A stretch of 64,000 nucleotides of DNA from Oligoflexia bacterium (GTDB lineage Bacteria > Bdellovibrionota > UBA1018): the NCBI GenBank assembly GCA_014378465.1, contig JACMNQ010000021.1, forward strand, positions 4,898-68,897. Direction: 5' to 3'. The notes beneath the pieces are model-generated. The model had not been told where the DNA came from and ran no database searches. It worked only from the letters and a program-made list of their open reading frames with translations. Shown piece after piece: positions 4,806 through 63,744 of this stretch; positions within the stretch are counted from its first letter, which is position 1, and each line of letters opens with the position of its first letter. The translations under genes and the position numbers were made by a program.

Positions 4806-4848
4806 GTCTCAGGCAGTCGGGGCACTTTCAGTGCGGGAGGATTCAGAG

Positions 4849-5934
4849 TTGAAAATCATCGACCAGCCACAAAAAAATTTCACGCGGAGCGAGACACTGA
4901 CTTCAGTGAACTCAGCATTTATCTTTTCATTCCCGCTCCCGGGTCTGCTCATCGCCCTGCTCACGTGCCTCTTCACAGGGTGCTTTCAGCCTCCTGCTGG
5001 CAGTGGTGCCGCAGTGTCTGCCTCGAGCTCCGCTCCTCAACCCACGCTCACCCCAGCACCCGGCCCCATGGCGGTGAAGATCATTTTCAAAGCCGATGGC
5101 AGCTCCTCGATCGGGAGCTTCTATGACTCTGAAATTGATTCCGGCACTCAGGTTGCGATCGCCAAAAAACTCTTTCCAGTCGATGGAACGAACAATCCCA
5201 TCGCCACGGGCGGACCCGGCTCATCGGGTTGGCCGGCCTGGCTCACCACCGTGCGTGTCGGATTGACGGGAACCACGCGAACCGTGGTAGCTGACCAAAA
5301 GCCCAATTGCGCAAGATTCGCCGATGCCACGACCACCCCCTGCGCGATCGGACCCGGAGGAGTTGCCGTGAACTGCAATGGTCCTGCCGGTTACCTTCGA
5401 GTCAGTGAAGTGGACTGCGGGAACACATTGACAAAAGGCACGGGCAGCGAAGCGGACCCGGTCTACATCCGAGTGACTTTCAGCGATCAGGTCGCGAATC
5501 TCGCCGCGCACGAAAACATCATGGCGGTTCTTGAATATGCCGCTGCCTCAATCAACCCTCCGCCGTCGGACCCGACCGCCTGCTTCACTGGAGGACTGTT
5601 CACTCCCGGCAATACCAATTGCAGTGATCAGACGTGGAACGTCTACCTCAAGAAGCTGGGAAACACGGCCGCGGCCAATCCTTTTCTCATGCTCATCCCT
5701 CCCGCGTACTCCTACCTGCGGCCGCTCTCCGTCAGCAGTGCTGAATCTGTCGGGGCCGGGGTGGCGTCCAAGCAGATCTTTCTGCCCCTCGCGTCGAATC
5801 CCGGACTCAGAGTCCTGCAGATCTCAAGAACCAATGCGACTTCGTCCTACACTTACAGTGGAGTGACTTGTCCGTCCAACTCACCCCTTTGCCTGGGCAT
5901 GGTCCTCTATTCTCTGACTCTCTACAGGATGTGA
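4849..5934 (+). CDS. Hypothetical lipoprotein (cluster gene 1), Cys-containing
   Basis: ORF-track start is 4831; TTG at 4849 is preferred because GGAGG lies just upstream. Lipobox LFTG-C followed by an Ala/Ser/Pro tether. Confidence 0.75.
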   Translation: MKIIDQPQKNFTRSETLTSVNSAFIFSFPLPGLLIALLTCLFTGCFQPPAGSGAAVSASSSAPQPTLTPAPGPMAVKIIFKADGSSSIGSFYDSEIDSGTQVAIAKKLFPVDGTNNPIATGGPGSSGWPAWLTTVRVGLTGTTRTVVADQKPNCARFADATTTPCAIGPGGVAVNCNGPAGYLRVSEVDCGNTLTKGTGSEADPVYIRVTFSDQVANLAAHENIMAVLEYAAASINPPPSDPTACFTGGLFTPGNTNCSDQTWNVYLKKLGNTAAANPFLMLIPPAYSYLRPLSVSSAESVGAGVASKQIFLPLASNPGLRVLQISRTNATSSYTYSGVTCPSNSPLCLGMVLYSLTLYRM

Positions 5935-5939
5935 ACGGA

Positions 5940-10217: not shown

Positions 10218-10338
10218 CACATTTTCAGAATTCGCCTGTGACGATTTTCTTCATGAATCTGCAGACTTGGATTGTCCAAGAATCAAGCACTGGCAAAAAG
10301 ATCTTCAGGACCTCAATTGTTCAGCTAAGCGTTTGTTC

Positions 10339-10366
10339 TCAATCCTTTTCTTGGTTCCACCGATAC
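10339..10366 (+). promoter_or_regulatory. Candidate sigma28 promoter
   Basis: TCAAT-N15-ACCGATAC, about 190 nt upstream of 10559. Confidence 0.4.
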
Positions 10367-10558
10367 GCCCTTGGAGAGAGTGTCGAAGAACCTGACAGTT
10401 GAAAAAGAGTTTTTCGCATTCGATTTTGCCTGAAGTGTCGGATTTCACAGGACTCTTGATGGATTGCATGCCCCTTGCAACTCAGGAGCGGTGGGAACTT
10501 ACGGGACTCGGTCAAAGTGAGATGATCAAAGCAAGATGATGAAAGCGAGACGACGAGA

Positions 10559-12516: not shown

Positions 12517-14919
12517 ATGAAATTCATGTTTGAATCCTCAAGAAAATTTCAGCCCGTGCTCCTGCTTCTGGGCGCCTTCTCACTTGCAGGTGGAACCGGT
12601 TGCACGAACTCCAACCTCACGAATCTGACGCGCAAGGCGCAGAAGACCGCAGCCATCGCCGCCGCAGCGGGCGATACCTACAAGATCACCAACGTGAGCG
12701 TCGCCGCTCCGGCCACAGGCGCCACGGGTAGCAGCGCACAGTTGACCACCGTGTATTTCAGCGCCTCCGATCCGGCGAACTCCATTGCCAACGGTTGCTC
12801 CGGCAGCAGTAGTGCGCAGAACCTCAAGTCCTGCACCTGTGAATTCAAATGGGATGAAATCAATTCGACGACGGGCAGCAATGTTCGGATCCCGAGGTCC
12901 GTCACGAGTTCGGTGCTCAACGTTCAGGCGAGCATCGTGACCTGCAATGCACCCCTGGCTTATGCGAGCGAAATCCCCGAAGGAACGATCATCACGGTCA
13001 ACGTGTTCCCAAGCGGCAACAACAACGGAAACTTTTCAGTCACTCCTTTCAAGTACACCAAGCAGGGAGTCGTCGTCGGCGGCAGCTTTCAGGACGCGGA
13101 AGGAAAATCCTTCGACAATATCCTTCGCTACTCCTGCTTTGAGCAGAACTACCGTGGCCTCACGATGAGGTCCAAGAAACTGGCCTACCCCAAATCCAGC
13201 GGAGATTCCACGGTCAACCTGCTTTACGCCAACCAGTATTGCACCGGAAAAACCGCGGGCGCCGCAGGCTGCGAATCCACACCGCCCGCCGGACTCTCGG
13301 CGCAGTCCTACTACTACAACCTTTACATTCGAAACACGGATCGCGGGAACATCAACTCCGAGAACCAGCGTTACAAATGCCCTCTGGTGAAGGAAAGTCT
13401 TTATTCAGTGCTCGGCAGCTCCGGCACTCAGAATGATTTCTACCCCCTCGACACGAGCTTCGCCCTCGCCCTCAGTCCCACTCCGAACTACAACGTCGGA
13501 GTCGAAGCATTCAGCAAGCTCGGAATCGGCACCGATCCATCAACCACCGGCTCCTCCTGCTATCCAGCTGCCAACGGTACCGGGACAGGAGACGCAAGTG
13601 GAGCGGGTGCCGGCTCGCTCGTTCACAGTTGCCTCGGATTCGCCGCGAAACCGGCTTCAGACGGAACCTGCCCGCTCATCCGCCTTCCGAACGGAACCCA
13701 GCAGAACACCTACCGCCTTCGCCGCTTCGTCGCTCTCTATCCTGCCCTTTTCGATACGGATGGAAAAATGATCGCGGAATTTCAGGCGACTGACTCCATT
13801 TACGTTCTTGACCGTCCCGTCAGGTACACGGGCATGGACATCACCAAGCCTTACACGATGCGCGGACCGAAGCCCTGCCCGTTCGCTTACTTTGACAAAG
13901 CGGCCGTCACCCGCGGACCCACGCCGGATCCGCTCTACCCGGATGGCATGCCTCAGTATGTTTCGACGAACAACCCTTCCTGGAACAACACCAACATCGA
14001 TGGAATTGAATTTCCCAACCAGGACATCAGCACTGCCACGCAGCAGTCCTGCTCCGCGGTGCTGCCGCTCCTGAGCAGTGACCGCAACACACTGAGCCTG
14101 GGTACGGTTCACACGAGCAATCCTTACCTGAAGCGTGTCTTCGTTCGGCCCGTGCAGGCCTGGGCACCTCACTACGAAGAGGATACGGACTTTCAGGCCT
14201 GCGCTCCGCAGTCCAACCCCCTCAAAGATCCCCCTCTTCACTTCGCGAAGGATTCGAGCACGGGAAATGTTTCCTGGTGCGCGGAAGTCTATCCCTCTCA
14301 GAATCCCAACGTCACCGCTCTCGATGCAAGAGACACGAGCAGCAACTTCCCTGGCAAAGTCATCTCCTACACTTCTCATGTCGCCAAGAACTCCATCAGC
14401 GCCGCGTGCACACCCACCACCTTGAGCGACAGAGTTCCGGCAACTCCCGGCTACCCATCTGATCCAGCGGGTGCGAGATCGTGTACCGTGAGTGCTTCGG
14501 TCGACTTCGGTGTCGCTCATCATCCAAAAAATCTCCTTCTTGAGCAGATCCCCGTCTCTTCCTACGGCTGCCTGAACGGAAGCACGGCCGAAGGAGCGCT
14601 CTGTAATTTCTGCGCAGACCAGACCTGCGATCGCACCGTTTCAAGCAACAATCTCACCAGCCAGTTTCCGCTTCTGGCGAGACCCAGCCAGGTTGAAACC
14701 GCCATTTCGTCTGACACGACCTATGGCTGCATCATGACCTACGATGGCGCCGGCGGCATCAAGTCCGGCAAGCGGTCTCCGACACAAGGCTGCTGCGGGC
14801 CCTCGGTCAAAGTATGGACGGGTACCGGCAATTCGAGCCCGGAACTTTCCAATAAAACCGCTCACCTTGAGCCCGACCCGAACTCGACTGGTTCACTTTG
14901 TGCGCAGCCCGGGTATTAA
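12517..14919 (+). CDS. Hypothetical Cys-rich lipoprotein, paralogue of gene 3 (cluster gene 4)
   Basis: 800-aa ORF starting 2 nt after the previous stop. Lipobox-like GGTG-C. Shares collinear motifs with 10559-12514. Confidence 0.75.
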   Translation: MKFMFESSRKFQPVLLLLGAFSLAGGTGCTNSNLTNLTRKAQKTAAIAAAAGDTYKITNVSVAAPATGATGSSAQLTTVYFSASDPANSIANGCSGSSSAQNLKSCTCEFKWDEINSTTGSNVRIPRSVTSSVLNVQASIVTCNAPLAYASEIPEGTIITVNVFPSGNNNGNFSVTPFKYTKQGVVVGGSFQDAEGKSFDNILRYSCFEQNYRGLTMRSKKLAYPKSSGDSTVNLLYANQYCTGKTAGAAGCESTPPAGLSAQSYYYNLYIRNTDRGNINSENQRYKCPLVKESLYSVLGSSGTQNDFYPLDTSFALALSPTPNYNVGVEAFSKLGIGTDPSTTGSSCYPAANGTGTGDASGAGAGSLVHSCLGFAAKPASDGTCPLIRLPNGTQQNTYRLRRFVALYPALFDTDGKMIAEFQATDSIYVLDRPVRYTGMDITKPYTMRGPKPCPFAYFDKAAVTRGPTPDPLYPDGMPQYVSTNNPSWNNTNIDGIEFPNQDISTATQQSCSAVLPLLSSDRNTLSLGTVHTSNPYLKRVFVRPVQAWAPHYEEDTDFQACAPQSNPLKDPPLHFAKDSSTGNVSWCAEVYPSQNPNVTALDARDTSSNFPGKVISYTSHVAKNSISAACTPTTLSDRVPATPGYPSDPAGARSCTVSASVDFGVAHHPKNLLLEQIPVSSYGCLNGSTAEGALCNFCADQTCDRTVSSNNLTSQFPLLARPSQVETAISSDTTYGCIMTYDGAGGIKSGKRSPTQGCCGPSVKVWTGTGNSSPELSNKTAHLEPDPNSTGSLCAQPGY

Positions 14920-45568: not shown

Positions 45569-45926
45569 GGGGACGTCACGGCTTCGACGGGAGTCTTGAT
45601 GCCTTGGATGCATGTCGTGGTTCGTCGAAGGCCACGTAAAAATCGACGAAATGTAATTGGCAACGATTACGCAATGGCTGCTTAATAGTTAACTCTATTT
45701 AAGTACCACGGTCTACCCGAAGGCTCCCATCGTTCGGAATAGTCCGTCATTGAATGGGATAGGTTCCTGGTTCTCGCAGATGGCCAGGGAGCGAAACTAA
45801 AGTCTGCGGAGGGTGAGAACAGGTTGTCTGTAGTCGTTTCTCACTTAATCCAAACTACAGAATACGCATGTAGATTCTAAGGTTGATGTCTTTCGGACGA
45901 GGGTTCGACTCCCTCCGTCTCCACCA
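45569..45926 (+). ncRNA. ssrA: tmRNA
   Basis: The 5' end GGGGACGtcacggcTTCGAC pairs with the 3' CGTCTCC-A-CCA (G3-U70). T-arm GAGGG-TTCGACT-CCCTC. Internal tag ORF ends in Ala-Ala. Length 358 nt. Confidence 0.95.
45659..45685 (+). other. tmRNA proteolysis tag reading frame (A)GNDYAMAA*
   Basis: GGC AAC GAT TAC GCA ATG GCT GCT TAA, followed by TAG. Confidence 0.85.
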
Positions 45927-46077: not shown

Positions 46078-46094
46078 TCCCTCCGTCTCCACCA
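46078..46094 (+). repeat. ssrA 3'-end copy 1 (att-like)
   Basis: tccctccgtctccacca, 17/17 identical to 45910-45926. Followed by the hairpin ggggttgaaga/tcttcagcccc and a T tract. Confidence 0.9.
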
Positions 46095-50161: not shown

Positions 50162-50235
50162 TGGCCGATTTCACGCGAGCTGACCCCTACGTTTTCACTC
50201 AACTGACCCCTGCTCTTTTCACTTGAGTTGACCCC
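50162..50235 (+). mobile_element. Orphan IS21-type terminal repeat
   Basis: TGGCCGATTtCAcgcGAGCTGACCC plus two internal TTCACT..A.TGACCC repeats, similar to the element end at 50488. Confidence 0.7.
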
Positions 50236-50487: not shown

Positions 50488-50676
50488 TGGCCGATTGCAG
50501 TTGAGCTGACCCGGGCAATTGCAATGAATTGACCCACCCCGATTTCACTTGAGTTGACCCAGGCGATTTCACTGAACTGACCCAGCCAATATCAGTGAAA
50601 TGACCCACTAGTTTTGGTCAGGTTTTCGGGTGCTTTTGAAGCTAGTGTCGATCATCTCAAAGGGGACCCCTGAAAG

Positions 50677-52155
50677 ATGATTGGCAGCAGAAAGAGCACC
50701 GCAGTGAGAAGTGAGATTTTTAGATTAAAACACGCAGGCCACGGGCACCGAAAGATTGCCCAGATCCTAGGGATTTCAAGAAATACGGTCAAAGGGATCC
50801 TGAAGTCCGGAGATGGGCCCGGTCGTGTGGAGAAGCCCTTGCCCGAGACCCGGGTCTGGAGTGATGAGGTGGCCTGGGATGAGGTCCGCAGTGAGCTCAC
50901 CAAGCGCTACGTGACGATCAAGCAGCTGGCGGCTGAATACGCCCCTGAGGGCGTTGATTACATCCGCTTCTGGAGGGAGCTCAGGCGACGCACTCCGGTC
51001 GACGTCATCAGTCAGGTGCGCATCAAGATGCAGCACGAGCCCGGAAGCCGCTTTGAGGGAGATTACTGTGACGGTATTGTGATCACGGACCGGAAAACCG
51101 GGAGAACGAAAAAGACGCAGCTCTTTGCAACCGCGAGTTCATTTAATGATTACAAATACGCCGAATTCACCATGGCCCAGACCAAATGCGAATTCATCGC
51201 GTCCCAAGACCGGATGTTTCATTTCTTTGGCGGGCTGCCAGTCTATTACGTGATCGACAATCTGAAGAGTGGCGTCAGCCGGGCGCACCGCTATGATCCG
51301 GACCTGAATCCTTCATACTGTGATTACGCCAATCACATGGGATTTTCCGTACTGCCGGCAAGACCCGTCACCCCAAGAGACAAGCCCGCCATTGAAGGCG
51401 CAATTGGCGTCACCCAGAGACAATTTTATTCGGAAGTGAGAAACCGGGTATTCTATTCAGTCACCGAACTCAATGACTGTCTTCGGAAATACATCACGCG
51501 CCTGAACGCTTCAGAAATGAAGGACTACGGGACAACCAGAGCCGCGCGCTTCGAAACTGAAAGGCCGCTACTGAAAGCACTTCCTCAAGAAGCCTACGAG
51601 ATGAGTGAGTACCGAAGCTCAAAAGTTCATCCGGATTGCCATATCCAGGTGGACCGAAATTTTTACTCAGTCCCGTACCGCTTCATCTCTCAAAGCATGC
51701 GCGTGAAGCTCTCGGTCAGAACCATTGAGATCTATAGCGAGGACCACGAGCTTGTCGCCATTCATGCGAGAAAATTAGGAAAACGAAACTTCTCCACCCA
51801 CGACGCCCACTATCCGGAACAAAAAATCGCCGCGGCAAGATTTGATATCTTGGCACTCAAAAAAGAGGCTGCCCGGATCGGACCCGAGATGGATGCCGTG
51901 AATGGTGAACTCCTGGCGGGAGTGTCGCCGCTTCGGTACCTGAGGCGCGCACAGGGAATCTTGCGGCTGTCAAAAACGCTACCGTCAAGTGCGCTTGAGT
52001 ACGGCTGCAAGCAGGCAAGGCTCTTTGGTCGCCTGAGGCTTCAGTACATCACTGACTGCGCGACCAGGTTCCATAGAAATGGGACCAGGCCCGTGCTGGT
52101 TAGGGAAGCCCCCGCTCGCGAGCGCTCTCAGATCTATCTCCATGAACAACCCTGA
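50677..52155 (+). CDS. istA: IS21 transposase IstA
   Basis: N-terminal HTH (KIAQILGISRNTVK), HEPG..EGDY, YVIDNLKSGV, DKPAIEG and DRNFYSVPY. Confidence 0.92.
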   Translation: MIGSRKSTAVRSEIFRLKHAGHGHRKIAQILGISRNTVKGILKSGDGPGRVEKPLPETRVWSDEVAWDEVRSELTKRYVTIKQLAAEYAPEGVDYIRFWRELRRRTPVDVISQVRIKMQHEPGSRFEGDYCDGIVITDRKTGRTKKTQLFATASSFNDYKYAEFTMAQTKCEFIASQDRMFHFFGGLPVYYVIDNLKSGVSRAHRYDPDLNPSYCDYANHMGFSVLPARPVTPRDKPAIEGAIGVTQRQFYSEVRNRVFYSVTELNDCLRKYITRLNASEMKDYGTTRAARFETERPLLKALPQEAYEMSEYRSSKVHPDCHIQVDRNFYSVPYRFISQSMRVKLSVRTIEIYSEDHELVAIHARKLGKRNFSTHDAHYPEQKIAAARFDILALKKEAARIGPEMDAVNGELLAGVSPLRYLRRAQGILRLSKTLPSSALEYGCKQARLFGRLRLQYITDCATRFHRNGTRPVLVREAPARERSQIYLHEQP

Positions 52156-52197
52156 ATCCGAAAACCCTGAAATGACCCTACGAAAGAGAAGTAAAAA

Positions 52198-52943
52198 ATG
52201 TCATCATCTCCATCATCATCAATCCCCATGATCCAGAGCATGCGGCAGATATCCCATGAACTGAGACTCTTTGGAGTCCACGAAGGGCTCGAGCGCAGGT
52301 CTGAGGAATCCCTTCACTCAGGGCTCAGCCCACTTGAGTACCTGAGACTCGTGCTTGAAGACGAGCGACTCCATCGCCGCCAGAGAACGGCAAAAATGCT
52401 TCAAACCCGGGCCAAGTTCCGATCTGGCGCCGAGCTTGAGGACTGGGACCACGCAGTCGATCGGGGGCTCAGTAAACCGCAGTTCAAGGATCTGGCAAGC
52501 CTGGGGTTTAAAACGTGATTATTGTCGGACCCACAGGGACCGGGAAGACACATCTGGCGACCGCTCTCGGAAAAAAACTCTGTCGTGAAAGTGTAGGAGT
52601 ACAGTTCTTCTCGCTCAATCTTTTTCTGGAGGAGTGTCAGGCCGAGAAATCCTCGGGTCGTTATCTCAACTTCATCAAACGCACAAAAAACGTCGCAGTT
52701 TTGATCTTAGATGACTTCGGACTTCGGAACTACTCGCACGATGAAGCAGTGATTATCGTCGACCTGCTTGAAGAAAGATATTAACACGGGTCTGTCATCA
52801 TCACGTCCAGGGTTGACCCAAAGGGCTGGCACAAACTCTTTGAAGATCCAGTGATTGCCGAGGCCGCAATCGACCGGATGAAAAATCCCAGCATGCAAAT
52901 CATTCTCAAAGGGAGTTCCTACCGAGAGCGCCTGAAAAAATAG
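52198..52943 (+). pseudogene. istB: IS21 helper ATPase IstB, disrupted
   Basis: Frameshift near 52510 just before Walker A (GPTGTGKT). In-frame TAA at 52782-52784 after LLEERY, then HGSVIITS...KGSSYR continues to TAG at 52943. Confidence 0.88.
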
Positions 52944-53105: not shown

Positions 53106-53205
53106 AGATCAAAAAGGCCGATTGAGCACTCAGTGTTTAATCGGCCCTTTTGATTTTATGCAATCGATATCGAAACTCGCAAGCCCCGCCCGATCAAATT
53201 TGGTC

Positions 53206-53342
53206 GAACAGTAATGCCAGAACGTGATCAGCGTTTTGCTCCTTCAGCAGGGAGCCGAGAGGGAGACTGAGGGGGCACCAGCTATGCTAGTCGCGAAGGA
53301 GCCCAGCCTGCAGCCGAAGCGGGATAGCGCTGAGAGCGAAAG
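53206..53342 (+). repeat. Structured repeat type A, copy 1
   Basis: Collinear with 53618-53756 (GAACAGTAA.GCCA.AACG...GCGTTTTGCTCC...ACTGAG..GG.ACCAGCTA.GCT.GTCGCGAAGGAGCCC..CCTGCAGCCGA.GCG.GA.AGCGC.GAGAGCG). Confidence 0.85.
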
Positions 53343-53344: not shown

Positions 53345-53363
53345 ACTCCCTCCGTCTCCACCA
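53345..53363 (+). repeat. ssrA 3'-end copy 3
   Basis: actccctccgtctccacca, 19/19 identical to 45908-45926. Followed by the hairpin aaaaatccca..tgggattttt. Confidence 0.9.
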
Positions 53364-53548: not shown

Positions 53549-53570
53549 TCGACTGCCTCCGTCTCCACCA
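53549..53570 (+). repeat. ssrA 3'-end copy 4
   Basis: tcgactgcctccgtctccacca, 21/22 identical to 45905-45926. Preceded by a type B element containing a 13-bp perfect hairpin at 53445-53473. Confidence 0.9.
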
Positions 53571-53617
53571 AAAATTAAAAGGACTGCTCCGAAAGAAGCT
53601 GCCTTTTTTATTTTGTG

Positions 53618-53756
53618 GAACAGTAACGCCAAAACGCAGTCGGCGTTTTGCTCCTCCCAGGCTAGACTCGAAAGGCGGACTGAGAGGGTACCAGCTACGC
53701 TGGTCGCGAAGGAGCCCGTCCTGCAGCCGAGGCGCGACAGCGCCGAGAGCGGAAAG
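53618..53756 (+). repeat. Structured repeat type A, copy 2
   Basis: See copy 1. Contains stems AAAACGC/GCGTTTT, ACCAGC/GCTGGT and GGCGC/GCGCC. Confidence 0.85.
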
Positions 53757-53803: not shown

Positions 53804-55603
53804 CTAAGCAGCCTTTTTGTGCCTATAGCCTTGATTGAGGTGATTTCTAAAAAGCTCGTTCATCCACCCGTGGCTCTTGGCCGCATCATATGCTTTGGGA
53901 TCTCGCTTCATAAAATCACGACGATTCCTGCAAAATCGAACAATCTCCTGACATTTCTCAAACGTCCAGTAAGCATTCGGTGCGGCCTTTGGAAGGTAGC
54001 CTTCATTTGGATGCCTTCTGAAAAGATCATTGAGCCAGCCCCTGCGATGGGCAGCCGCGAAAGCACCGGGCTGGTGTAGTTCTAGTTCTTTTCTTGTTTT
54101 CACTTTCGAAACGAACTCAGAGACTCGCTCAAAGGTCCAAAAACCTGGCGGTATACTCTTGAAGCCTTGGTTTGGATGCATGGCAAACAGGTGATCAAGC
54201 AGTCTTCTCCGGACAGCCCCTTCGTAAGCGCCGGCATGCTTCATCTTGAATTCGCTCCTGGTCGCGCATTGCTTTACCAGGGCGCTGAGTTGGTCATAGT
54301 CCCATTCCGCATTCTTCCGGTACCCATGGCCTGCATGGTTTTCAAAGAGTTCGTCAAGCCAGTGATTTTTAACGGCTGCCGCGTGGGCCCCCGGGAACCG
54401 CTCCTTGAATTCCTTTCGATCCGTACACTGCTTGGCGGCAGCCTGGCATGCCGCCAAGCTCCAAGTGCCGTTTTTTTTCTTGATCAAGCCTTGATGAGGA
54501 TGATCTTTGAATATCCGATCCAGAAGCTTCTGATTTGCAGCCGCTTGATACGCATTTGGATGTTTTTTTAAGAACTCGTTGCGACTCTCGCAAACCATGG
54601 CCAGCTCGTGCAATTTATCTTCAGTCCAAAACCCAGTGTCCACCCGAAGTTTTCCTTGATTCGGCAGCGACGAGAATATTTCCTCCAGCCATCCGTTATG
54701 AATTGCAGAATTGTAACCGCCTCCGAAATTCTTTTGGAATGCTCGCCTGGAGCCGCATTTCAGAGCAACTCTCCTACATTCTTCCTTGTTCCAACGATCA
54801 ATACCCTTTCCAACTGCACCACCGCCATCCGCATTTGCCATAATCCAGCCATCGGTGCGGAATTTTTTGATCTGATCTTTTTCAAGGGCTGCGGCGCAGC
54901 TTTCATCTAGTGGTCCCGATATTCGTGTCAACACTGCCCCATCTTCGATCAACTTCCGAACGACAGCCGATCCCGACCTGCGATGTTCCTCGAATCTCTC
55001 TTCTGGATCGTGCGAAAGCCCTACGTAAATGCGCTTTTCACTCGCGAGCGCGATCGTGTAGACATAGCGTGTATAGAGACTCCCCAGCGAACGCATATGC
55101 GCTGAAAAATCATCAATCCAGCCGTTTCTCAGGGCACTTGAATAGGCGCTGGAGTATTTCTTTCTGAACTCGTTTTTTGACTTGCACTCAAGTGCAGCCT
55201 TGCGGCAATTCTCTTTATCCTGCCAGTGACCCCGTGCAACTCTTCCCTCTTCAAAGCCACGATTGGGATGGTCTTCAAATAATAGATCGATCACGCCATT
55301 TTGGTGCGCACGGCTATAGGCATTTGGATTTGTTTTTGCCATCTGGCCACGGGTAGCAAATCCAGCCGCAATCCTCTTGAGGTCTGAGATTGACTCTTCC
55401 TTTGAAGTAAACTTCGCTATTCGGTTGCCCCCGTTGGTGTGGTTGCAGAAGATTTCCTGAAGCCAACCTGCACGGTAGGCGGCTCTAAAGGCCTGGTAGT
55501 GATCGGTTCGCATCTGCTTTTGGTCAACACAAGCATTTGCGATTGTTTGACATTTCTCCTTCGTCCATGCCGGCAGCTGAGAACTTTTTTTATGCGAGGC
55601 CAT
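53804..55603 (-). CDS. GIY-YIG nuclease embedded in nine ~55-aa helical tandem repeats
   Basis: YVY-x10-IYVG..DPEERFEEH...LEKDQI..ANADGGG nuclease core. Repeat consensus W(T/S)xExC..A..C..RxEF...xAY..A...GWLDELF..HxNxG, with 3 copies before and 6 after the nuclease. Confidence 0.8.
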   Translation of the reverse strand: MASHKKSSQLPAWTKEKCQTIANACVDQKQMRTDHYQAFRAAYRAGWLQEIFCNHTNGGNRIAKFTSKEESISDLKRIAAGFATRGQMAKTNPNAYSRAHQNGVIDLLFEDHPNRGFEEGRVARGHWQDKENCRKAALECKSKNEFRKKYSSAYSSALRNGWIDDFSAHMRSLGSLYTRYVYTIALASEKRIYVGLSHDPEERFEEHRRSGSAVVRKLIEDGAVLTRISGPLDESCAAALEKDQIKKFRTDGWIMANADGGGAVGKGIDRWNKEECRRVALKCGSRRAFQKNFGGGYNSAIHNGWLEEIFSSLPNQGKLRVDTGFWTEDKLHELAMVCESRNEFLKKHPNAYQAAANQKLLDRIFKDHPHQGLIKKKNGTWSLAACQAAAKQCTDRKEFKERFPGAHAAAVKNHWLDELFENHAGHGYRKNAEWDYDQLSALVKQCATRSEFKMKHAGAYEGAVRRRLLDHLFAMHPNQGFKSIPPGFWTFERVSEFVSKVKTRKELELHQPGAFAAAHRRGWLNDLFRRHPNEGYLPKAAPNAYWTFEKCQEIVRFCRNRRDFMKRDPKAYDAAKSHGWMNELFRNHLNQGYRHKKAA

Positions 55604-55784: not shown

Positions 55785-56747
55785 TTACGCCGCCTCCAGC
55801 TTAATCTTCAGATTCATCATCCATTCAGTCATGAGCCTGATCACTTGCTCATGATTGGGACCTCCGGGCACTACAGCGTAAACTTCGACTTCAGGCAACC
55901 CCGGAACATCGGGTGCGAGTAAGTCTCTGCCGTCAAAAGCTACGCCCAGATACTCGGCAGCGATAAAGCCCGCGCCCCGGATAGGCGCCACTCCAAAGCT
56001 CCGAACCTTTCCTTTCCCGTCCCATTTGAGCGTATCCGTCCGGTCCTCATGAGGCACGGAGCGAAAAAGCTGAACTGCGGCTCGAGTTGCGATCGAAGCG
56101 CCGTCCTGCCTAGCAAGTCCTGCGACGAGGTACTTGAAAGCGATCTTTGCTTCCCCCAGCTCCAACGCTCTCTCAGAGAGCATCGCCGCGTGGGTAGCGC
56201 TTTCTGCAGCGCCCTCAGCACTCAATTCTGACAACGTCATTTTGGCGACTCGCCCGTTCAGTGACAACAACTCTTGAACTCTGAGTGCAGGGTTGAATGA
56301 TTCTGTATCCGGCGTCCACTCGTGCCTGAGGATCCACGAACAGATCCCGATCAAGGCTTCACTATCAAGGGGCAGCGCCAGAGGTACATTCGAGTACAGG
56401 TCCTGTGAACGAATCTGTTTTGAAGCGGCCCAGGCCAGGTCCATCTCGGCCTTTCTTCTGCGCGCCACAAGGCCCAAAATCTCAAAGAAGGCCGCACCTC
56501 GGTAGCCGCCCTTTCTGAATTCTCGTGCTTCGGTCACAGCCCCCACCCATTCGCCCTCTGTGATCTTCCTGATCAGGGATTTGGGAGAACGAATATCGGA
56601 GGTTGTAACTGGAGTCACAAGAGACACAGGCGCGCAGGCCTCGGGTAAGAGTTTTAACTTCATTCTCAAAGTTTGCTGCCCAACGGTGACATCCCGGGAC
56701 CCGCTCTCATGGCCGACGAAGATCCGATGCCTGACCTTATCTGACAA
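55785..56747 (-). CDS. Hypothetical protein
   Basis: 320-aa ORF divergent from the DUF2779 gene. No motif recognised. Confidence 0.6.
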   Translation of the reverse strand: MSDKVRHRIFVGHESGSRDVTVGQQTLRMKLKLLPEACAPVSLVTPVTTSDIRSPKSLIRKITEGEWVGAVTEAREFRKGGYRGAAFFEILGLVARRRKAEMDLAWAASKQIRSQDLYSNVPLALPLDSEALIGICSWILRHEWTPDTESFNPALRVQELLSLNGRVAKMTLSELSAEGAAESATHAAMLSERALELGEAKIAFKYLVAGLARQDGASIATRAAVQLFRSVPHEDRTDTLKWDGKGKVRSFGVAPIRGAGFIAAEYLGVAFDGRDLLAPDVPGLPEVEVYAVVPGGPNHEQVIRLMTEWMMNLKIKLEAA

Positions 56748-56914: not shown

Positions 56915-58948
56915 ATGTCGCCTCGCTATCTGACTAAGTCTCTCTTCAAAGTCGCCTATGAGTGCCCCACGAAGCTCTACTACCAAATCCATAAGGAGTA
57001 CGGCAACACGAAGGTCGACAATGCGTTTCTCAAAGCGCTGGCTGACGGAGGCTTTCAGGTCGGGGAGCTCGCCAAGATGTATTCGCCTGGCGGCATTGAG
57101 ATCACTGAAAAGAACTCGGACAAGGCCGCTGAGCAGACCGAGGTCCACCTCAAAAAAGAGAACGTCACTCTTTTCGAAGCGGCACTCAGGGTGGATGGTC
57201 TTCTGGTCAGAGTTGATATCCTTCACAAGCGCGGCAACTCCATTGAGCTGGTCGAAGTCAAAGCCAAGAGCTGGGATGACACCGAAGAAAGTGGCTTCTA
57301 CAAGAAAGCAGAACTTAAAAAAGGCATCCGGAAGATCCAGGGCGACTGGGAACCCTACCTCATGGATATCGCCTTTCAGACCTACGTCGCCAAGAAGGCA
57401 CTGCCTGGCTGCAAGATCTCAAGCTACCTCATGATGGCTGACAAGACGGCCAAGACCACTGTGGACGGCATCAACCAGAGATTTCTCATTGTCACTGACA
57501 ACAAGCAGACCGACGTGATCGTCCGAGAAGGCACCAAGCGTGACATGCTGGGAGACTCAGTCCTCATCAGCAAGTGCGTGGATGATGAAGTCGAAGTGCT
57601 CTTCAATGAGACATTTGATGAAGGTCGCACTTTTACTCAACTCGTCAATCACCTCCTCAACCTGATCGCTACGGATACGAAAGACGAACCCAAGATCTGC
57701 TCGAGCTGCAAACAGTGTGAGTTCAGGCTCCCGACTCAAGATATCACCCCCACCCACAACAGTGGATTTGAGGAATGTTGGCTCAAGGCCACCGGCTTAA
57801 GCCTTGAGAAACTGAGAACTCCCCTCGTCTTTGACCTTTGGGACAATCGCAAATCAAAAGACCTCATCGAGCAGAGAATCTACCTGATGACTGACATTCA
57901 GGAAGAGGACCTCGCCTCAAAAGCCAAGAGCAAAAAGAAAACGGATGAAGGGGACATTGATCCTACGGCGGGACTCACCCGGACCGCAAGACAGTGGCTC
58001 CAAGTCGAAAAGACTCAGAAGAATGACTTAACCCCCTATTTCGATCACATTGGCCTCAGAGAGGAAATGAGCTCCTGGACCTACCCACTGAACTTCATCG
58101 ATTTTGAGACCACGATGGTCGCCATCCCCTTTCATAAGGGCAAGCGTCCTTATGAGCAGCTTGCCTTTCAATTCTCTCACCACGTGATGACGGCCAATGG
58201 AAAGATCACCCACCAGAGTGAGTTCATCCACTTTGAGCAGGGAGCATTCCCCAACTTTGACTTTGTCCGGGCACTCAAGAAGGCGCTCACCACAAACGAT
58301 GGAACGATCTTTCGATTCGCCGCACACGAAAACACGGTTCTTGGGCAGATCATGAGGCAGCTTGAGGCGGCGGCCGATACCACTCCAGACCACCAAGAAC
58401 TCATCGACTGGATCAAAGAGATCACTCAGTCCTCAAAGGATGCTGACGTCTCCTGGGAAGGCAGCCGAAACATGATTGACCTCTGCGACCTGGTGAAGAA
58501 ATTCTACTATAGCCCACTCACCGGCGGATCAAACTCGATCAAGAAAGTACTGCCGGCCGTGCTGCGCGAATCTACCTATCTGCAAGACAAGTACAGCAAG
58601 CCCATCTATGGGACCGACATTCCCAGCAAGAACTTCAAAAACCACGCATGGATCAAAAAAGATTCCGAGGGCAAGATTCTAGACCCCTACAAGACCCTTG
58701 AGCCCATCTTCTCAGACCTAGACTTGAAGACCATGGACTCCCTGATCAAAGAGAACAGCCTTGCTGACGGCGGCGCTGCGATGACCGCCTTTGCGCGTAT
58801 GCAATTTACCGAGATGAGCGAGCTTGAGCGGCACCGCGTCTCCAAGGCGCTCCTTCGGTATTGCGAGCTGGATACTTTTGCGATGGTCATGATCGTGGAG
58901 TACTGGATAGACGTACTTAAGGCGCATGAAGGGAAAGATGCGGCATGA
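56915..58948 (+). CDS. DUF2779-type protein: Cas4/RecB-like PD-(D/E)xK nuclease fused to an RNase H-fold (DEDD-like) exonuclease
   Basis: LTKSLF..AYECPTKLYY, RVDIL..LVEVKAKS, CSSCKQCEF, FIDFETT..PYEQLAFQFSHH, MIDL, SIKKVLP and LLRYCELDT. Confidence 0.8.
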   Translation: MSPRYLTKSLFKVAYECPTKLYYQIHKEYGNTKVDNAFLKALADGGFQVGELAKMYSPGGIEITEKNSDKAAEQTEVHLKKENVTLFEAALRVDGLLVRVDILHKRGNSIELVEVKAKSWDDTEESGFYKKAELKKGIRKIQGDWEPYLMDIAFQTYVAKKALPGCKISSYLMMADKTAKTTVDGINQRFLIVTDNKQTDVIVREGTKRDMLGDSVLISKCVDDEVEVLFNETFDEGRTFTQLVNHLLNLIATDTKDEPKICSSCKQCEFRLPTQDITPTHNSGFEECWLKATGLSLEKLRTPLVFDLWDNRKSKDLIEQRIYLMTDIQEEDLASKAKSKKKTDEGDIDPTAGLTRTARQWLQVEKTQKNDLTPYFDHIGLREEMSSWTYPLNFIDFETTMVAIPFHKGKRPYEQLAFQFSHHVMTANGKITHQSEFIHFEQGAFPNFDFVRALKKALTTNDGTIFRFAAHENTVLGQIMRQLEAAADTTPDHQELIDWIKEITQSSKDADVSWEGSRNMIDLCDLVKKFYYSPLTGGSNSIKKVLPAVLRESTYLQDKYSKPIYGTDIPSKNFKNHAWIKKDSEGKILDPYKTLEPIFSDLDLKTMDSLIKENSLADGGAAMTAFARMQFTEMSELERHRVSKALLRYCELDTFAMVMIVEYWIDVLKAHEGKDAA

Positions 58949-59958
58949 CGTCAATTCAAGAGACTCGAAGTGGTGAGGACTGGTCGGAGGACGAGATTTC
59001 AGCATCGGTGGTGGCATATTTTTCTCTCATGCAAATGATCATATCCGATCAGCCCGCAAAGAAGGCTCAAATATACCGACAACTCTCCCAACAATATCCA
59101 GCTCGTACTCCAAAAGCGTTTGAAGCAAAATTCCAAAATATAAGTGCGGTACTCTTCGAAATGGGCCGTGCGTTTATCCCTGGGCTCAAGCCGAGAAAGA
59201 ACTATCAAAATTGCCTTTTTAAGGCCGTGACTGAATATCTGGGCAAATCTGCACTTCAAGTGTGTGAGCCCATACCTAGAGACAGGCTTTTTGACGAGCT
59301 GAGGCGGCTTACAAAGCAAGGCTTTATACCAGTGAAGGGCAAAGGGACCGGAAGATTTGGACTCACTCTCGAACACTACCTAAACATTCCACAGAACTGC
59401 AGCAAAAATCCTGACTATTTTGGCATCGAACTAAAGACAAAACGAAAAGGCAAACTGCAAACACTTTTTTCTAGAAAGCCTACAAGATACCACGCTTGCG
59501 TCGATAGGTCTGGGCTCCTCTTTAATTTTGGTTACCCTCATAAGAAGCGAAAAAATGATTTCGCTTTGCGCACTTCATTTAACGTTTTACCGAATACCCT
59601 TGGATTTAATTTGAATGTGCGAAACAAATTATTCGAAGTAATCAAAAATAATTCAGCAATCCTCGATTTCTCTCACGCTAGTATAGAACAGACTCTATTA
59701 GCGAAGCATTTTGAAACGGTGTACATCAAAGTTCTGGCTCGCAAAACTCAAAGACGCCAGGAAGAGTGTCGTTTCGATGGCGCGGTCTACTACTCAACGC
59801 CGTCACTCGACCGGTTTATTAAGCTGGCCAGAGAAGGAAGCGTTTACTTGGACTTTACTCTGAGTTCCAACGAAGGGACCGTCAAAGACCACGGTTTTCT
59901 GTGGAGAATTCTTAATGATAAACTCATTTCGCTCTACGAAAGCTCAATTGTTATCTAG
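58945..59958 (+). CDS. MvaI/BcnI-family restriction-endonuclease-like protein with an extra N-terminal helical domain
   Basis: GTGRFGLTLEHYLNI..N.SKNPDYFGIELKTKR...TLFSRKP...KDHGFLWR. N-terminus WSEDEI..SV.AYF...KFQNISAVL..PGLKPRKNYQ. ATGA overlap with the upstream gene. Visibly more AT-rich than its neighbours. Confidence 0.75.
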   Translation: MTSIQETRSGEDWSEDEISASVVAYFSLMQMIISDQPAKKAQIYRQLSQQYPARTPKAFEAKFQNISAVLFEMGRAFIPGLKPRKNYQNCLFKAVTEYLGKSALQVCEPIPRDRLFDELRRLTKQGFIPVKGKGTGRFGLTLEHYLNIPQNCSKNPDYFGIELKTKRKGKLQTLFSRKPTRYHACVDRSGLLFNFGYPHKKRKNDFALRTSFNVLPNTLGFNLNVRNKLFEVIKNNSAILDFSHASIEQTLLAKHFETVYIKVLARKTQRRQEECRFDGAVYYSTPSLDRFIKLAREGSVYLDFTLSSNEGTVKDHGFLWRILNDKLISLYESSIVI

Positions 59959-60148
59959 AAAATGGGATTTTCGTCACCGGATGCATTACTCTCCCTCCTG
60001 AGGGGAGGACCGCGAAACATTCCTCGTCAAGTAAATCCGCTCAAAACTAGTAGCATTGTCCCTCCCTGTCAACCGACCCGCTTATATTCATGCAAGCTCC
60101 TCATCGATGGTTTTACTTCCGAGTTTGACTCGGGTTAGGGTGACTTGC

Positions 60149-61327
60149 ATGAATCTTAAGATCTTTCACACAGCCGATATCCACTTGGGGCTTCAGTTCT
60201 CAAAGTACCCAGACGACCTCTCGAAAAAGCTCCGGGAAGGGCGATTTGAGACTCTCGTACGGATGGTGCAGACTGCGAATGCCGAGCGCTGCCAGCTCTT
60301 CGTCGTGGGTGGAGACATGTTCGATACCACCCAAGTCGCAAAGAAGCTCGTAGTGCAGGCGGCTAAGATCTTGAGCGAGTTTGAGGGAGTCGTTGTTGTC
60401 CTTCCGGGCAATCATGATTTCATCACGGGTACCGACCCCAGCACCCACAATGATCTCTGGTCAGCGTTTCAAGAAGCCCATTCTGACCGCGTGCTCCTCT
60501 TGACGGAGAAAAAGCCCTACTCCCTGAAATCCTTTGATCTCGACGTCTGCCTCTATCCAGCTCCCTGCCAGAATAAGCACTCCAAGACTCACGCCGTGAG
60601 TTGGCTTGAGTCGACTGAGAAGGCTGAAGACACGACCTACCACGTGGGTCTTGCGCACGGGAGTTTCGAAGGGGTCAGTGCCGACATCGAGGGTGAGTAC
60701 TACCCCATGAAAAAGGACGACCTCCTCGTCCACAAGATGGATATCTGGCTTATGGGCCACATCCATATCCAGTACCCTCAAAAGCCAGGAGCTTCGGACA
60801 AGATCTTTTACCCTTCAACTCCAGAGCCCGATGGCTTTGATTGCCGTCACGAAGGACGGGCGTGGATCCTGGAAGTTGACCCCGAGAAACGCGTGACTGC
60901 GCGCTCGACCTCCACCGGGCACTACCGGTTTCTTCAGGATAGTGTTCGCATCGAGTCGCAAGCTGACCTCGATCTCCTGAAGCTCCGCTACAAAGGCGAC
61001 TCTTTCAAAAACACCCTGGTCAAACTCACTTTGGAAGGGTCCTTGGCCAAAGCCGAGTACGCCACTCTCAATTCGCTCCTGCAGGCACTCAAGGATGATC
61101 TCCTCTTCTTGAAATACGATGACTCAGGCGTTCGGGTCAAACTCACCCCTTCGGACATCGACAGCGAATTTACGCCCGAGTCGTTCCCTCACCTGCTCCT
61201 CACCTCCCTCTCCGGAAAAACGCAGAGCACCGAGAGCCTGGACAGCCCAGAACTTCATGAAGACCGCGACGCGCTTCAGCTCGCGTATGAACTTATTCAG
61301 GAACTCAAGCAAGGAGCCGCCAAATGA
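60149..61327 (+). CDS. Mre11/SbcD (YhaO-like) metallophosphoesterase nuclease
   Basis: All five motifs present: HTADIHLG, GGDMFD, LPGNHD, GLAHG and LMGHIH. ATG 60149 (ORF-track start 60056). Confidence 0.9.
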   Translation: MNLKIFHTADIHLGLQFSKYPDDLSKKLREGRFETLVRMVQTANAERCQLFVVGGDMFDTTQVAKKLVVQAAKILSEFEGVVVVLPGNHDFITGTDPSTHNDLWSAFQEAHSDRVLLLTEKKPYSLKSFDLDVCLYPAPCQNKHSKTHAVSWLESTEKAEDTTYHVGLAHGSFEGVSADIEGEYYPMKKDDLLVHKMDIWLMGHIHIQYPQKPGASDKIFYPSTPEPDGFDCRHEGRAWILEVDPEKRVTARSTSTGHYRFLQDSVRIESQADLDLLKLRYKGDSFKNTLVKLTLEGSLAKAEYATLNSLLQALKDDLLFLKYDDSGVRVKLTPSDIDSEFTPESFPHLLLTSLSGKTQSTESLDSPELHEDRDALQLAYELIQELKQGAAK

Positions 61328-63744
61328 TTTTAAAGAAAATCACGCTCCATCCTTTTGCGGGCATTCGCAATCAGACCTTCACCTTTGAGAGCGGCCTGAA
61401 TGTCCTGTGCGGTCCGAATGACATTGGCAAATCCACGCTTTTTCGCGCCATAGAAGGCGTTTTCTTTCTCGAGACCAAACCCAAGGTCAATTCAATTGAA
61501 GGGAAATTTCTCCAGACACTGATCCCGATCGGCGGGGACAATGCGAAAGTGACCGCCGAGTTTGAAAGTGGCGGAATTCCGTACCGACTCGAGAAGACCT
61601 GGGGAGCCGGCCACGCCTGCCGCCTGGAACTTCCTGATGGGACTGCCCTCAACACGCAGGAAAAGATTTCAGAAAAGCTTCAGCAGATCTTGCCGGCGAC
61701 CGAAGCGACCTTTAAAAGCATTCTACTTGCTGGACAGAACTGCCTTGCGCAGACGATCGGGCACCTGGAAAAAAACCAGGACTCGCTTCATTCCTTGGGG
61801 GATGTGCTGAGGCAGGCCATGAGCCAGACTGACGGGATCTCGGTCGACCGTCTGAAGCTCATGCTCCAGGAGCGGATCGACAAAGCGTTTTTGCGCTGGG
61901 AAACTCAGAGCCAAGGTCCGCAAGGCGGACGCGGACTTGAAAACCCCTGGGCCTATCCCGGCAGTATCCTGAAAAGCTGGTATGAGCGCGAGAATCTCAA
62001 GAAGCAGCGCAACGACATTCGCGCGCTCGAAGCTTTGTACGGCGATAAGGCGAACCTGCTTGCGCAGAAGACGGCGAGGCAGGCTCAGGCGCAACTCTTC
62101 ATGCAGGAGCATGAACCTCACATCGAGGCGATCCAACAGCGAAAGACGCTCGAGGCCGTCAGCCAGGGTGCAAAGCACGCAGTCGATACAGTGAAAGCCG
62201 ACCTTGGCAACTGGATGAAGGCAGAAAACCTCCAACCCATTCTCGCTCTTGAACTTCAGCGTCTGAAGACGGTGGTCGCGAATCTGAAGAAGGAACAAGG
62301 CGAAGCCCATGCGGCGTCAGGTAGAAAAGCCCTCATCGACCGCTTCACGAAGATCGAGGCTGAGCACCAAGAGCTTTTGCGCCTCAAGGCCGCGAAGGAT
62401 GCCCTCCCCACCGTAGCCCATGAGAACATCGAAGCCTTGCGAGAAGCGCTGGGTCTCAGTGAACGCTTGAAAGCAGGACTTTCTGCCTCAAAACTCGCAC
62501 TTCAGTTCACGGCGCGTGCTGCACTTGACCTGGTCACTCAGAAGGATCTCGATCCTGCCTCCAAGCAAGGTCTTGCCTTGGGCCAGACCCTTGAGCTCCA
62601 GGCCGGGGGTCGGATTTATCTGACTCATGACCTTTTTGAAATCAAGATCAGCTCGGGCGACGGTAAAATGGATCAACTCGAAAAGAACCTCAAGGCCTCC
62701 GAGCAGACCATCCGGAGCCTCCTTGAAAAACTGAAAGTCTCCAACCTTGCTGAAGCACTGGAGCAGGAATCGGCCTTTACTTCCGCCACGCGCAAAGTCG
62801 AAACTTCAGAAAGAACCCTCCGGAGCCTGCTTGGCCAGGACCGCTATGAAGAACTGAAGACCCTTTTTGATGCGGCCCAGACGCAGGTCGGCTCAAGAGA
62901 GCTTTCGATCATCGTCCAAGAGTTTTCTGAAGCGAGCAGCGATTTGGGCAAGAAGGAAAGTGACTACCAACAGGCTACTCTTGAACTCAACCGACTCAAG
63001 CAACTCTACGGAAGTGATGACTCAAGTTCGCTCCTGGTCAAACTCTCTGAAAAAACCGCCGAACTGAATAAAAGCGTGAAGGACCTGGCTAGCCTCCCTG
63101 CCATTCCAGCTGACATAGGAGACGGCGATACCCTTCTCACCCGCTTCAGTACCGCGCGCGACGCCTTCAGAAGAATCACCGAAGAACTCCCCCGTCTCAT
63201 TTCAGACGTCGCTGAGCTCAGAGCTCAGCTCTCTGACAAGACCTCGCAAGAGTTTGATCGACAATTTGAGGACGCGGACCAGGCTTTTCAGAAGGAACTG
63301 CGCGCAGGCAATGCCCTTCAGCGGGTCAGCCAAGCCGTTCAAGCTCTTGAAGCCAGAAGTACCAACGTCTATTCTGAACTTCAGAAGGAATTCGAAAAAA
63401 CGATCACTCAGTTCAGCTCAGGCAAGTACTCCAAATCCAATATGACAGGCTCACTCCCCCAGGCCTTCACCCGGCAGGACGGGGCCAAGGTTCCCTATGA
63501 GTGGCTCTCTGGAGGCACCAAGGACAGCTTTGCCTTGGCGCTGAGACTTGCCATGGCCCGGTACTTTCTAGCGGCAAGGTCAGGCTTTCTGCTCGTTGAC
63601 GACCCCATGGTCGCGATGGATCCGGACCGCCAAAAAATTGCGGCGGGCTTGGTAAAGGAGTTTGCTGAGAAGACGCAGGTTCTGGTCTTTACTTGCCACC
63701 CATCGCACGCGGAGATTTTGGGTGGGACAGCGGTGAAGATTTAG
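61324..63744 (+). CDS. Rad50/SbcC-like (YhaN-type) coiled-coil ABC ATPase
   Basis: Walker A GPNDIGKST, a long coiled coil, signature LSGGT, Walker B/D-loop LLVDDPMVAMD and H-loop FTCH. No CxxC hook. ATGA overlap with the Mre11 gene. Confidence 0.88.
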   Translation: MILKKITLHPFAGIRNQTFTFESGLNVLCGPNDIGKSTLFRAIEGVFFLETKPKVNSIEGKFLQTLIPIGGDNAKVTAEFESGGIPYRLEKTWGAGHACRLELPDGTALNTQEKISEKLQQILPATEATFKSILLAGQNCLAQTIGHLEKNQDSLHSLGDVLRQAMSQTDGISVDRLKLMLQERIDKAFLRWETQSQGPQGGRGLENPWAYPGSILKSWYERENLKKQRNDIRALEALYGDKANLLAQKTARQAQAQLFMQEHEPHIEAIQQRKTLEAVSQGAKHAVDTVKADLGNWMKAENLQPILALELQRLKTVVANLKKEQGEAHAASGRKALIDRFTKIEAEHQELLRLKAAKDALPTVAHENIEALREALGLSERLKAGLSASKLALQFTARAALDLVTQKDLDPASKQGLALGQTLELQAGGRIYLTHDLFEIKISSGDGKMDQLEKNLKASEQTIRSLLEKLKVSNLAEALEQESAFTSATRKVETSERTLRSLLGQDRYEELKTLFDAAQTQVGSRELSIIVQEFSEASSDLGKKESDYQQATLELNRLKQLYGSDDSSSLLVKLSEKTAELNKSVKDLASLPAIPADIGDGDTLLTRFSTARDAFRRITEELPRLISDVAELRAQLSDKTSQEFDRQFEDADQAFQKELRAGNALQRVSQAVQALEARSTNVYSELQKEFEKTITQFSSGKYSKSNMTGSLPQAFTRQDGAKVPYEWLSGGTKDSFALALRLAMARYFLAARSGFLLVDDPMVAMDPDRQKIAAGLVKEFAEKTQVLVFTCHPSHAEILGGTAVKI

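Follow-up and report, generated by a model that had tools for sequence, protein, structure and literature searches.

Gene organization and composition of the locus

The window analysed here is a 64,000-nucleotide (nt) stretch of contig JACMNQ010000021.1 (positions 4,898 to 68,897 of the forward strand; assembly GCA_014378465.1), from an Oligoflexia bacterium of the Bdellovibrionota. It contains four co-oriented genes on the + strand, which a first-pass annotation had proposed as one new defence system. The first gene (56915-58948, +) encodes a DUF2779-family protein of 677 amino acids (aa), the second (58945-59958, +) an MvaI/BcnI-like endonuclease of 337 aa, the third (60149-61327, +) an Mre11/SbcD-like metallophosphoesterase of 392 aa and the fourth (61324-63744, +) a Rad50/SbcC-like ABC ATPase of 806 aa. 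As annotated, they form two coupled pairs: the stop codon of the DUF2779 gene and the start codon of the MvaI-like gene share an ATGA overlap (GCATGACG, 58945-58948), and the Mre11-like and Rad50-like genes overlap in the same way (AAATGATT, 61324-61327). The Mre11-like gene is present, as annotated, but it starts at ATG 60149 and not at the listed upstream TTG 60056: SbcD-like homology and the Metallophos domain begin at this ATG, and relatives align from residue 1-3. This start leaves a 190-nt intergenic gap (59959-60148) after the MvaI-like gene, which separates the two gene pairs. The four nuclease sites and the SMC-type ATPase that had been predicted are all there, as seen from Pfam matches and from conserved residues among homologues. 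The four genes are real, and judged from the sequences they probably encode active nucleases.

The composition of the four genes is not uniform. Against a reference of 27 core open reading frames (ORFs), whose G+C content at third codon positions (GC3) is 0.652 +/- 0.051, the DUF2779 (0.677), SbcD-like (0.669) and Rad50-like (0.632) genes show host-like GC3, and the MvaI-like gene shows a GC3 of 0.450 (z = -4.0) and a GC content of 0.42-0.45. This departure from the core marks the MvaI-like gene as recently inserted, by horizontal transfer, between host-like genes. The change from foreign to host-like composition falls within the 59959-60148 gap. A promoter and terminator scan gave nothing above shuffled expectation, and no such site was called within this gap.

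Distribution of the four genes among related loci

Co-occurrence was examined in 173 related loci (referred to by L numbers): 83 DUF2779 loci, 83 Rad50-like loci and seven MvaI loci. Neither the four-gene set nor any set containing an MvaI-like gene was found in any of them. No MvaI-like gene was found in the 83 DUF2779 loci or in the 83 Rad50-like ones, and the seven MvaI loci contained none of the remaining three genes. A DUF2779 gene is lacking in 79 of the 83 Rad50-like loci outside the window, and at most two of the 83 DUF2779 loci (L056 and L063) show any SbcCD-type gene, in both cases by weak or other-family matches. In the DUF2779 loci L031, L056 and L063 there are weak Rad50-like matches, which were left out of the co-occurrence counts as being distant or from another family. 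When the closest DUF2779 and Rad50-like loci were compared with the window by tblastx, synteny was limited to the genes themselves. The proposal of one four-gene defence system does not survive these counts and the foreign composition of the MvaI-like gene. On balance we consider it probable that the locus consists of three independent units placed side by side: the DUF2779 gene, the MvaI-like gene and the Mre11-like/Rad50-like pair.

The DUF2779 protein

The DUF2779 protein matches PF11074 at residues 394-541 (85.1 bits against a gathering threshold of 23.3; 6e-24) and shows an N-terminal Cas4-like PD-(D/E)xK nuclease and a C-terminal DEDDy 3'-5' exonuclease domain. Across 22 homologues, the PD-(D/E)xK triad D101/E114/K116 and the DEDDy residues D396, E398, D522, Y649 and D653 are invariant. 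The first-pass annotation had noticed a cysteine set of the form C...CxxCxxC. Four cysteines are indeed invariant in the same homologues, but they are C17, C265, C268 and C288; C262, the first cysteine of the CxxCxxC, is a glycine in relatives. This conservation suggests that the Cas4-like nuclease probably carries an iron-sulphur cluster. The AlphaFold2 model of the protein has a predicted local distance difference test score (pLDDT) of 84.5. In Foldseek, the whole two-domain model found Cas4 family proteins (ACE1, Cas4-Cas1), MGME1, AddAB, RNase T and 3'hExo at the top, by weak matches (E of about 2e-3 to 0.1) with low template modelling (TM) scores for a model of both domains. Neither a sequence search of the PDB nor PADLOC gave a match for this protein.

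The combination of Cas4 and DEDD domains in PF11074 was described computationally earlier (PMC3985635; in detail PMC13621843), and the catalytic residues found here agree with those described in PMC13621843. The two-domain architecture and the conserved catalytic residues are also those of the UU173-type Cas4-DEDD fusions, such as MMSYN1_0389 of JCVI-syn3.0. The subfamily of the window differs from them in having four invariant cysteines, whereas the mycoplasma protein has two, and the window protein scores 31.8 bits with the NCBIfam UU173 family model, whose cut-off is 225. The literature search gave nothing relevant on DUF2779 in a defence context. DUF2779 is uncharacterised and quasi-essential in a minimal mycoplasma; the defence genes found in its 3' slot (see below) make it a candidate player in defence or in DNA-end handling.

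Distribution of DUF2779 and its variable 3' slot

DUF2779 relatives number in thousands. When a single genome of each GTDB species was scanned, at least 555 relatives were found, and the best 80 of them, with 43-57% identity, belong to Bdellovibrionota, Bacteroidota, Spirochaetota, Acidobacteriota, Firmicutes, Planctomycetota and others. A spread across many phyla, at 43-58% identity, also distinguishes this subfamily from the UU173-type proteins. The closest relatives are in conjugative-element-like defence islands, which contain a Z1 domain protein, an MmeI-like enzyme and TraG. Downstream of these closest relatives there is either no gene, McrBC or a gene encoding a DUF4357 protein.

Thirty-nine genes downstream of DUF2779 homologues were examined with Pfam and PADLOC, and many of them overlap or abut the DUF2779 stop codon. 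The defence-type occupants of this position include GIY-YIG/RAMA (DUF4357), McrB/McrBC, SLATT_5, WYL-WCX, HD dGTPase-like, NOV_C and OLD proteins, a SIR2 protein (PADLOC Dsr2, E = 0), a reverse transcriptase (Drt3a, 1e-104), a NERD-helicase, a PD-(D/E)xK nuclease and a type III methyltransferase, together with the PADLOC candidates PDC-S02, S14, S23 and M19A. Occupants of a non-defence type are UPF0227 (three times), an alanine dehydrogenase and a DUF1801 protein. Across genomes, the occupants are mutually unrelated. DUF2779 is directly followed, on its 3' side, by a hypervariable slot whose content changes from genome to genome and is often a defence gene, and the MvaI-like gene is one more of its occupants. 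Two points survive from the original proposal: these defence-type neighbourhoods, in which DUF2779 is embedded, and the proximity of DUF2779 to the Mre11-like/Rad50-like pair, which exceeds chance (see below). The 3' slot of DUF2779 is a phylum-spanning hotspot of known and candidate defence genes, and can serve as a practical landmark for mining such systems.

The MvaI/BcnI-like gene

The protein encoded by the second gene matches MvaI_BcnI (PF15515) with 117 bits (1e-33), and PADLOC assigns PDC-S36 to residues 9-102 and REase_II to residues 120-328. Its model (pLDDT 87.3) matches MvaI (2oaa) and BcnI (2odi) in Foldseek with E values of 2e-15 to 5e-14 and target-normalised TM scores of 0.75-0.77, and the catalytic PD...ExK motif is retained as D157, E162 and K164. 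The fold and this motif are those of R.MvaI and R.BcnI, monomeric type IIP enzymes, from which the window protein differs by an extra N-terminal four-helix domain (residues about 10-102) that matches the PDC-S36 N-terminus, and by the lack of a methyltransferase near its gene. A hidden Markov model (HMM) of the N-terminal domain found no other copies in the fetched loci, so the domain is not a shared adaptor among DUF2779 neighbours. Nothing relevant on PDC-S36 was found in the literature.

In the 64-kb window no DNA methyltransferase was found; a motif scan gave a single MTS-domain protein, at 39.5 kb. With no cognate methyltransferase nearby, the MvaI-like gene is unlikely to belong to a classical type II restriction-modification pair, a reading that was rejected; a solitary restriction-type or modification-dependent nuclease is more likely. 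The closest relatives are gammaproteobacterial, show 49% identity and the same architecture, and stand alone; they adjoin a small ORF, the truncated C-terminal part of a C5-methyltransferase gene, and vsr. In two gammaproteobacterial lineages, L011 (9066-10837) and L008 (9200-10222), the MvaI-like gene is followed by a conserved small ORF (about 125-131 aa), then by a C5-cytosine methyltransferase gene of which only the C-terminal third is left, and then by vsr. It looks as if the nuclease cassette replaced the 5' part of a dcm-like gene in these loci, and their arrangement hints that the MvaI-like enzyme may be incompatible with dcm-like methylation.

The Mre11-like/Rad50-like pair

The Mre11-like protein matches Metallophos (2e-14), and the Mre11/SbcD motifs D10, H12, D56, N88-H89, H170, H204 and H206 are all kept in 58 sequences. 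Its SbcD matches in NCBIfam and in the PDB are weak. With the NCBIfam SbcD model it scores 47.8 bits, below the cut-off of 77.65, and the Rad50-like protein scores 65.8 bits with the NCBIfam Rad50 model, below the cut-off of 1000; the NCBIfam Mre11 match on the pair is also sub-threshold. In Pfam, the Rad50-like protein matches AAA_23, SMC_N, AAA_21 and AAA_27, the last one at residues 1-48 only (23.7 bits against a cut-off of 22) and seen in most relatives as well. It shows a Walker A motif, an LSGG signature and a Walker B motif, with G30, G35-K36-S37, S729, G731 and D759-D760 invariant, and among PDB entries its profile matches the archaeal Rad50 heads best (5e-27).

The description of this protein as a hookless Rad50 is upheld: no CxxC zinc hook was found in the 806-aa protein, whose cysteines are only in the head regions, and no cysteine pair is conserved among 16 relatives. 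Within the coiled coil there is a conserved, non-helical-looking central segment (about 395-450, AGG...SGDG), which may replace the zinc hook as an apex or dimerisation element. A second family-specific segment, near the coiled-coil base (about 171-225), contains W192, P199 and the motif RGxENPW; neither segment is part of the ATPase motifs. The family contains at least 441 metagenomic relatives and its length is nearly constant, about 790-813 aa.

Of the 53 loci with room for one, 50 have an SbcD-like gene as the next gene upstream of the Rad50-like gene, and the overlapping pair is a self-contained two-gene cassette. Its closest relatives are in housekeeping contexts. The immediate neighbours of the pair encode mostly housekeeping or DNA-metabolism functions, such as topoisomerase (three times), DNA_pol_A_exo1 (three times) and PDDEXK_1 with UvrD_C (twice), and few of them show strong PADLOC matches. 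The flanks are still conserved between loci whose Rad50-like proteins share only 44-61% identity (L005/L207, L141/L157, L107/L108 and L007/L106/L114). At its end, the window has a gene that converges with the Rad50-like gene, and this gene differs from the GNAT gene seen there in L005 and L207. Searches of 72,556 plasmids and of 2.9 million viral contigs gave no full-length relative. Some loci adjoin defence or mobile genes: HsdR and YgjP in L095, a SNF2 helicase in L140, and an IS3 transposase and MksB/E-like genes in L210. The Rad50-like protein is evolving faster than the neighbouring proteins.

In L115 and L117, intergenic repeats of 30-70 nt with 84-97% identity are found around the cassette, for example at 5325-5372 and 6511-6575 in L115 and at 8829-8872, 9793-9860, 13338-13389 and 15661-15694 in L117. 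These repeats may be of the miniature inverted-repeat transposable element (MITE) or repetitive extragenic palindromic (REP) type and mark a variable region.

Comparison with known SMC-type systems

By analogy of its gene features, the pair most resembles SbcEF (YhaO/YhaN) of Bacillus subtilis, a hookless paralogue of SbcCD. In both, an SbcD/Mre11-like gene is directly upstream of the gene encoding a CxxC-less SMC/Rad50-like ATPase. The distinct central segment of the window ATPase is conserved within its own family and may be a counterpart of the SbcE central domain. AAA_27, a YhaN-type head, is just above its threshold on the window ATPase and on most of its relatives, and some relatives have an adjacent exonuclease gene, as yhaM in Bacillus. 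The window ATPase, with 806 aa, is shorter than SbcE, which has about 963 aa. The window family also differs in belonging to Bdellovibrionota-like, Spirochaetota and other uncultured lineages, not to Firmicutes, and its cassette switches genomic context in some lineages. SbcE lacks a CxxC, adjoins an SbcD-like gene, is involved in double-strand-break repair and competence, and has heptad regions of about 300 aa each (PMC2811018).

The pair shares the phosphoesterase and ABC-ATPase head motifs and the coupled two-gene operon with SbcCD and Mre11-Rad50 of Escherichia coli and archaea; it differs from them in lacking a zinc hook, in that no SbcD_C domain was detected, and in NCBIfam scores far under the cut-offs. 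As with Lamassu, Wadjet, DdmABC, MADS, PARIS, Gabija and Septu, a coiled-coil ABC ATPase is encoded beside nuclease genes, but the partner proteins that define those systems are absent here. The PADLOC matches on the Rad50-like protein (mad3, 5e-21, and N- or C-terminal fragments of LmuB, e.g. residues 1-52, AriA, PtuA and GajA) cover generic ATPase-head regions and compose no complete known system. PADLOC gave no significant model for the DUF2779 or SbcD-like proteins and no partner models on the neighbouring genes. The earlier view that the set fits no known SMC-type system is therefore confirmed by head-only partial matches and missing partner genes. MADS, suggested by the mad3 match, was rejected, since it is an eight-gene operon with a methyltransferase and no partner genes are found here. 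The literature search gave nothing relevant on SbcCD-like or Mre11-like defence systems.

Functional interpretation and alternatives

Under the reading of three juxtaposed units, each unit would act on its own. The activities and the repair role given here are those predicted from the observed gene structures, catalytic-residue conservation, folds, co-occurrence statistics and composition. The DUF2779 protein, a widespread, horizontally spread and strongly conserved Cas4-like/DEDDy fusion, would degrade or resect both strands at DNA ends. The MvaI-like protein, whose gene recently filled the DUF2779 3' slot, would be a monomeric PD-(D/E)xK endonuclease, as expected from its family. The pair would act like SbcCD, as an ATP-dependent complex for the processing of DNA ends and hairpins.

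Several observations weigh against this reading. DUF2779 is found beside the pair more often than chance predicts: in four of the 83 other Rad50-like loci (L095, L115, L117 and L140; four of 50 when only loci with 4 kb or more of flank are counted) a DUF2779 gene is on the same strand, 0.05-3.3 kb from the pair, and the Poisson probability of four DUF2779 genes in 546 kb of flank is about 1e-5, even if every 4-Mb genome is taken to carry one copy. Without the foreign MvaI-like gene, DUF2779 and the pair would be adjacent in the window and make a fifth case, so these two units may not be fully independent. Close pairs (75-94% identity) of several lineages share the cassette only, with unrelated flanks (L115/L117, 94% identical, L134/L174, L130/L134 and L109/L115); in L115/L117 the GC content is 0.46 in the cassette and 0.32-0.40 in the flanks. 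Such cassette-only sharing would not fit a purely vertically inherited repair gene. In addition, the only runs found are DNA runs of one glacier metagenome study, and a single one of them contains the sequence.

The co-occurrence of DUF2779 with YhaO/YhaN-like pairs, which the annotation had put forward as a check, is real in a few loci and above chance, and absent from most. Its frequency is too low for an obligate partnership and is compatible with an occasional functional association or with common residence in variable regions. As a link above chance, it gives a testable hypothesis on broken-DNA processing in these lineages. The most operon-like case of a pair with DUF2779 and restriction genes is L095. 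This locus (111-11953) contains, all co-oriented, genes encoding HsdR, a YgjP-like metallopeptidase, a DUF2130 protein, an unassigned 451-aa protein, the SbcD-like and Rad50-like proteins, and a short DUF2779/Cas4 protein of 492 aa.

Ahead of the other alternatives, although unlikely, is that DUF2779 and the pair form a loose three-gene module for DNA-end processing, in repair or in the destruction of broken foreign DNA, with the MvaI-like gene as a later passenger. The window, L095, L115, L117 and L140 are five independent juxtapositions, with varied gene orders: the DUF2779 copies near pairs are only 24-48% identical to each other and differ in side and spacing, the 94%-identical pairs of L115 and L117 have different DUF2779 lineages on opposite sides, and the DUF2779 gene comes after the Rad50-like gene in L095 (48 nt apart) and in L140 (145 nt apart). 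The host-like GC3 of DUF2779 and the pair around a foreign gene agrees with such a module, as do other pairs that adjoin separate DEDD-type (DNA_pol_A_exo1) or PD-(D/E)xK genes, echoing yhaO-yhaN-yhaM. However, obligate partners would be expected together far more often than in four of 83 loci, only one or two of the 83 DUF2779 loci show an SbcCD-type gene, by weak or other-family matches, and common residence in variable regions could yield the excess.

A more speculative proposal, which we regard as rather improbable, gives DUF2779 the part of a conserved and horizontally spread helper that finishes DNA ends and serves both the restriction-type effector of its 3' slot and the hookless Mre11/Rad50-like complex. 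If this were true, DUF2779 and these partners would together serve defence as a RecBCD-like arm for post-cleavage degradation, or repair as an arm for resection, in lineages such as Bdellovibrionota and Bacteroidota, and the window would represent an ancestral DUF2779-SbcD-Rad50 cluster with a newly inserted restriction nuclease.

We find it quite improbable that the pair acts on its own, without DUF2779 or the MvaI-like gene, as a mobile system of two genes against phages or plasmids. The cassette-confined homology and the raised GC of the L115/L117 cassette would agree with mobility, as would the defence or mobile neighbours in L095, L140 and L210, the mad3 match as the best one in PADLOC and the fast evolution of the Rad50-like protein. 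Against it stand the lack of full-length relatives on the plasmids and viral contigs searched, the mostly housekeeping neighbours with deep synteny in several lineages, the host-like composition in the window, and PADLOC matches restricted to the generic ATPase head without a complete system. The possibility raised at the outset, that the pair is the vertically inherited chromosomal repair copy, agrees with host-like composition, housekeeping contexts and deep synteny, and disagrees with the cassette-only sharing seen elsewhere. Among uncultured bacteria this compact, hookless Mre11/Rad50-type cassette (about 806 aa) is widespread, and it behaves partly as a core pair and partly as a mobile one.

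That all four genes form one defence system, with Rad50/Mre11 sensing DNA ends and the other nucleases executing, is very improbable. In its favour, the genes lie close together on one strand, there are two ATGA overlaps and the four nuclease active sites appear intact; against it, the four-gene set and all MvaI-containing sets are absent from the 173 related loci, the MvaI-like gene is compositionally foreign, 190 nt separate the two pairs, and the genes are outside the detectable ssrA island array. The four-gene set should stay off lists of candidate defence systems. The reading of three juxtaposed units is retained as the probable one.

The ssrA island array and the neighbouring genes

The tmRNA gene, ssrA, is at 45569-45926 (+) (ARAGORN; Rfam RF00023, 186.7 bits). 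The 17-mer of its 3' terminus has four matches in the window, against 0.15 expected. A repeat and pattern search placed one copy downstream of the gene at 46078-46094 (+) and the last two at 53347-53363 and 53554-53570 (+); none is found past 53570. The ssrA island array can be detected as far as about 53.57 kb, and the DUF2779 gene, the first of the four, begins 3.3 kb past the last repeat. The earlier placement of the four genes inside ssrA-anchored accessory DNA is not borne out, since the 17-mer copies stop before all of them. The stretch from 45.9 to 64 kb showed no integrase ORF, and an Rfam scan of the window found no additional tmRNA fragments, the attachment-site (att) copies having come from the repeat and pattern search.

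Degenerate copies of the tmRNA 3' end are found downstream of ssrA at 46078, about 53083, 53347 and 53554, each followed by a hairpin and a T-run, and a duplicated unit of about 410 bp is near the last att copies (53198-53341 and 53610-53754). The degenerate array and the duplicated unit resemble scars left by islands that integrated and were excised repeatedly. The array contains a hybrid histidine kinase gene and an IS21 element. This IS21-family element (50677-52784) shows an apparently intact IstA of 492 aa, and an IstB divided into two ORFs (52198-52518 and 52515-52784); with IstB split, the element is probably inactivated. Repeats of about 73 nt are present at its left end (50162-50234 and 50488-50560).

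Two genes on the - strand are between the last att copy and DUF2779, and both are probably accessory. The one adjoining DUF2779 (55785-56747, -) encodes a 320-aa protein without a family match. The other, next to it (53804-55603, -), shows a GC3 of 0.515 (z = -2.7) and encodes a 599-aa protein with a single GIY-YIG domain within about ten repeats of a motif of about 45 aa (...AY.AA...GWLDELF..H.N.G...).

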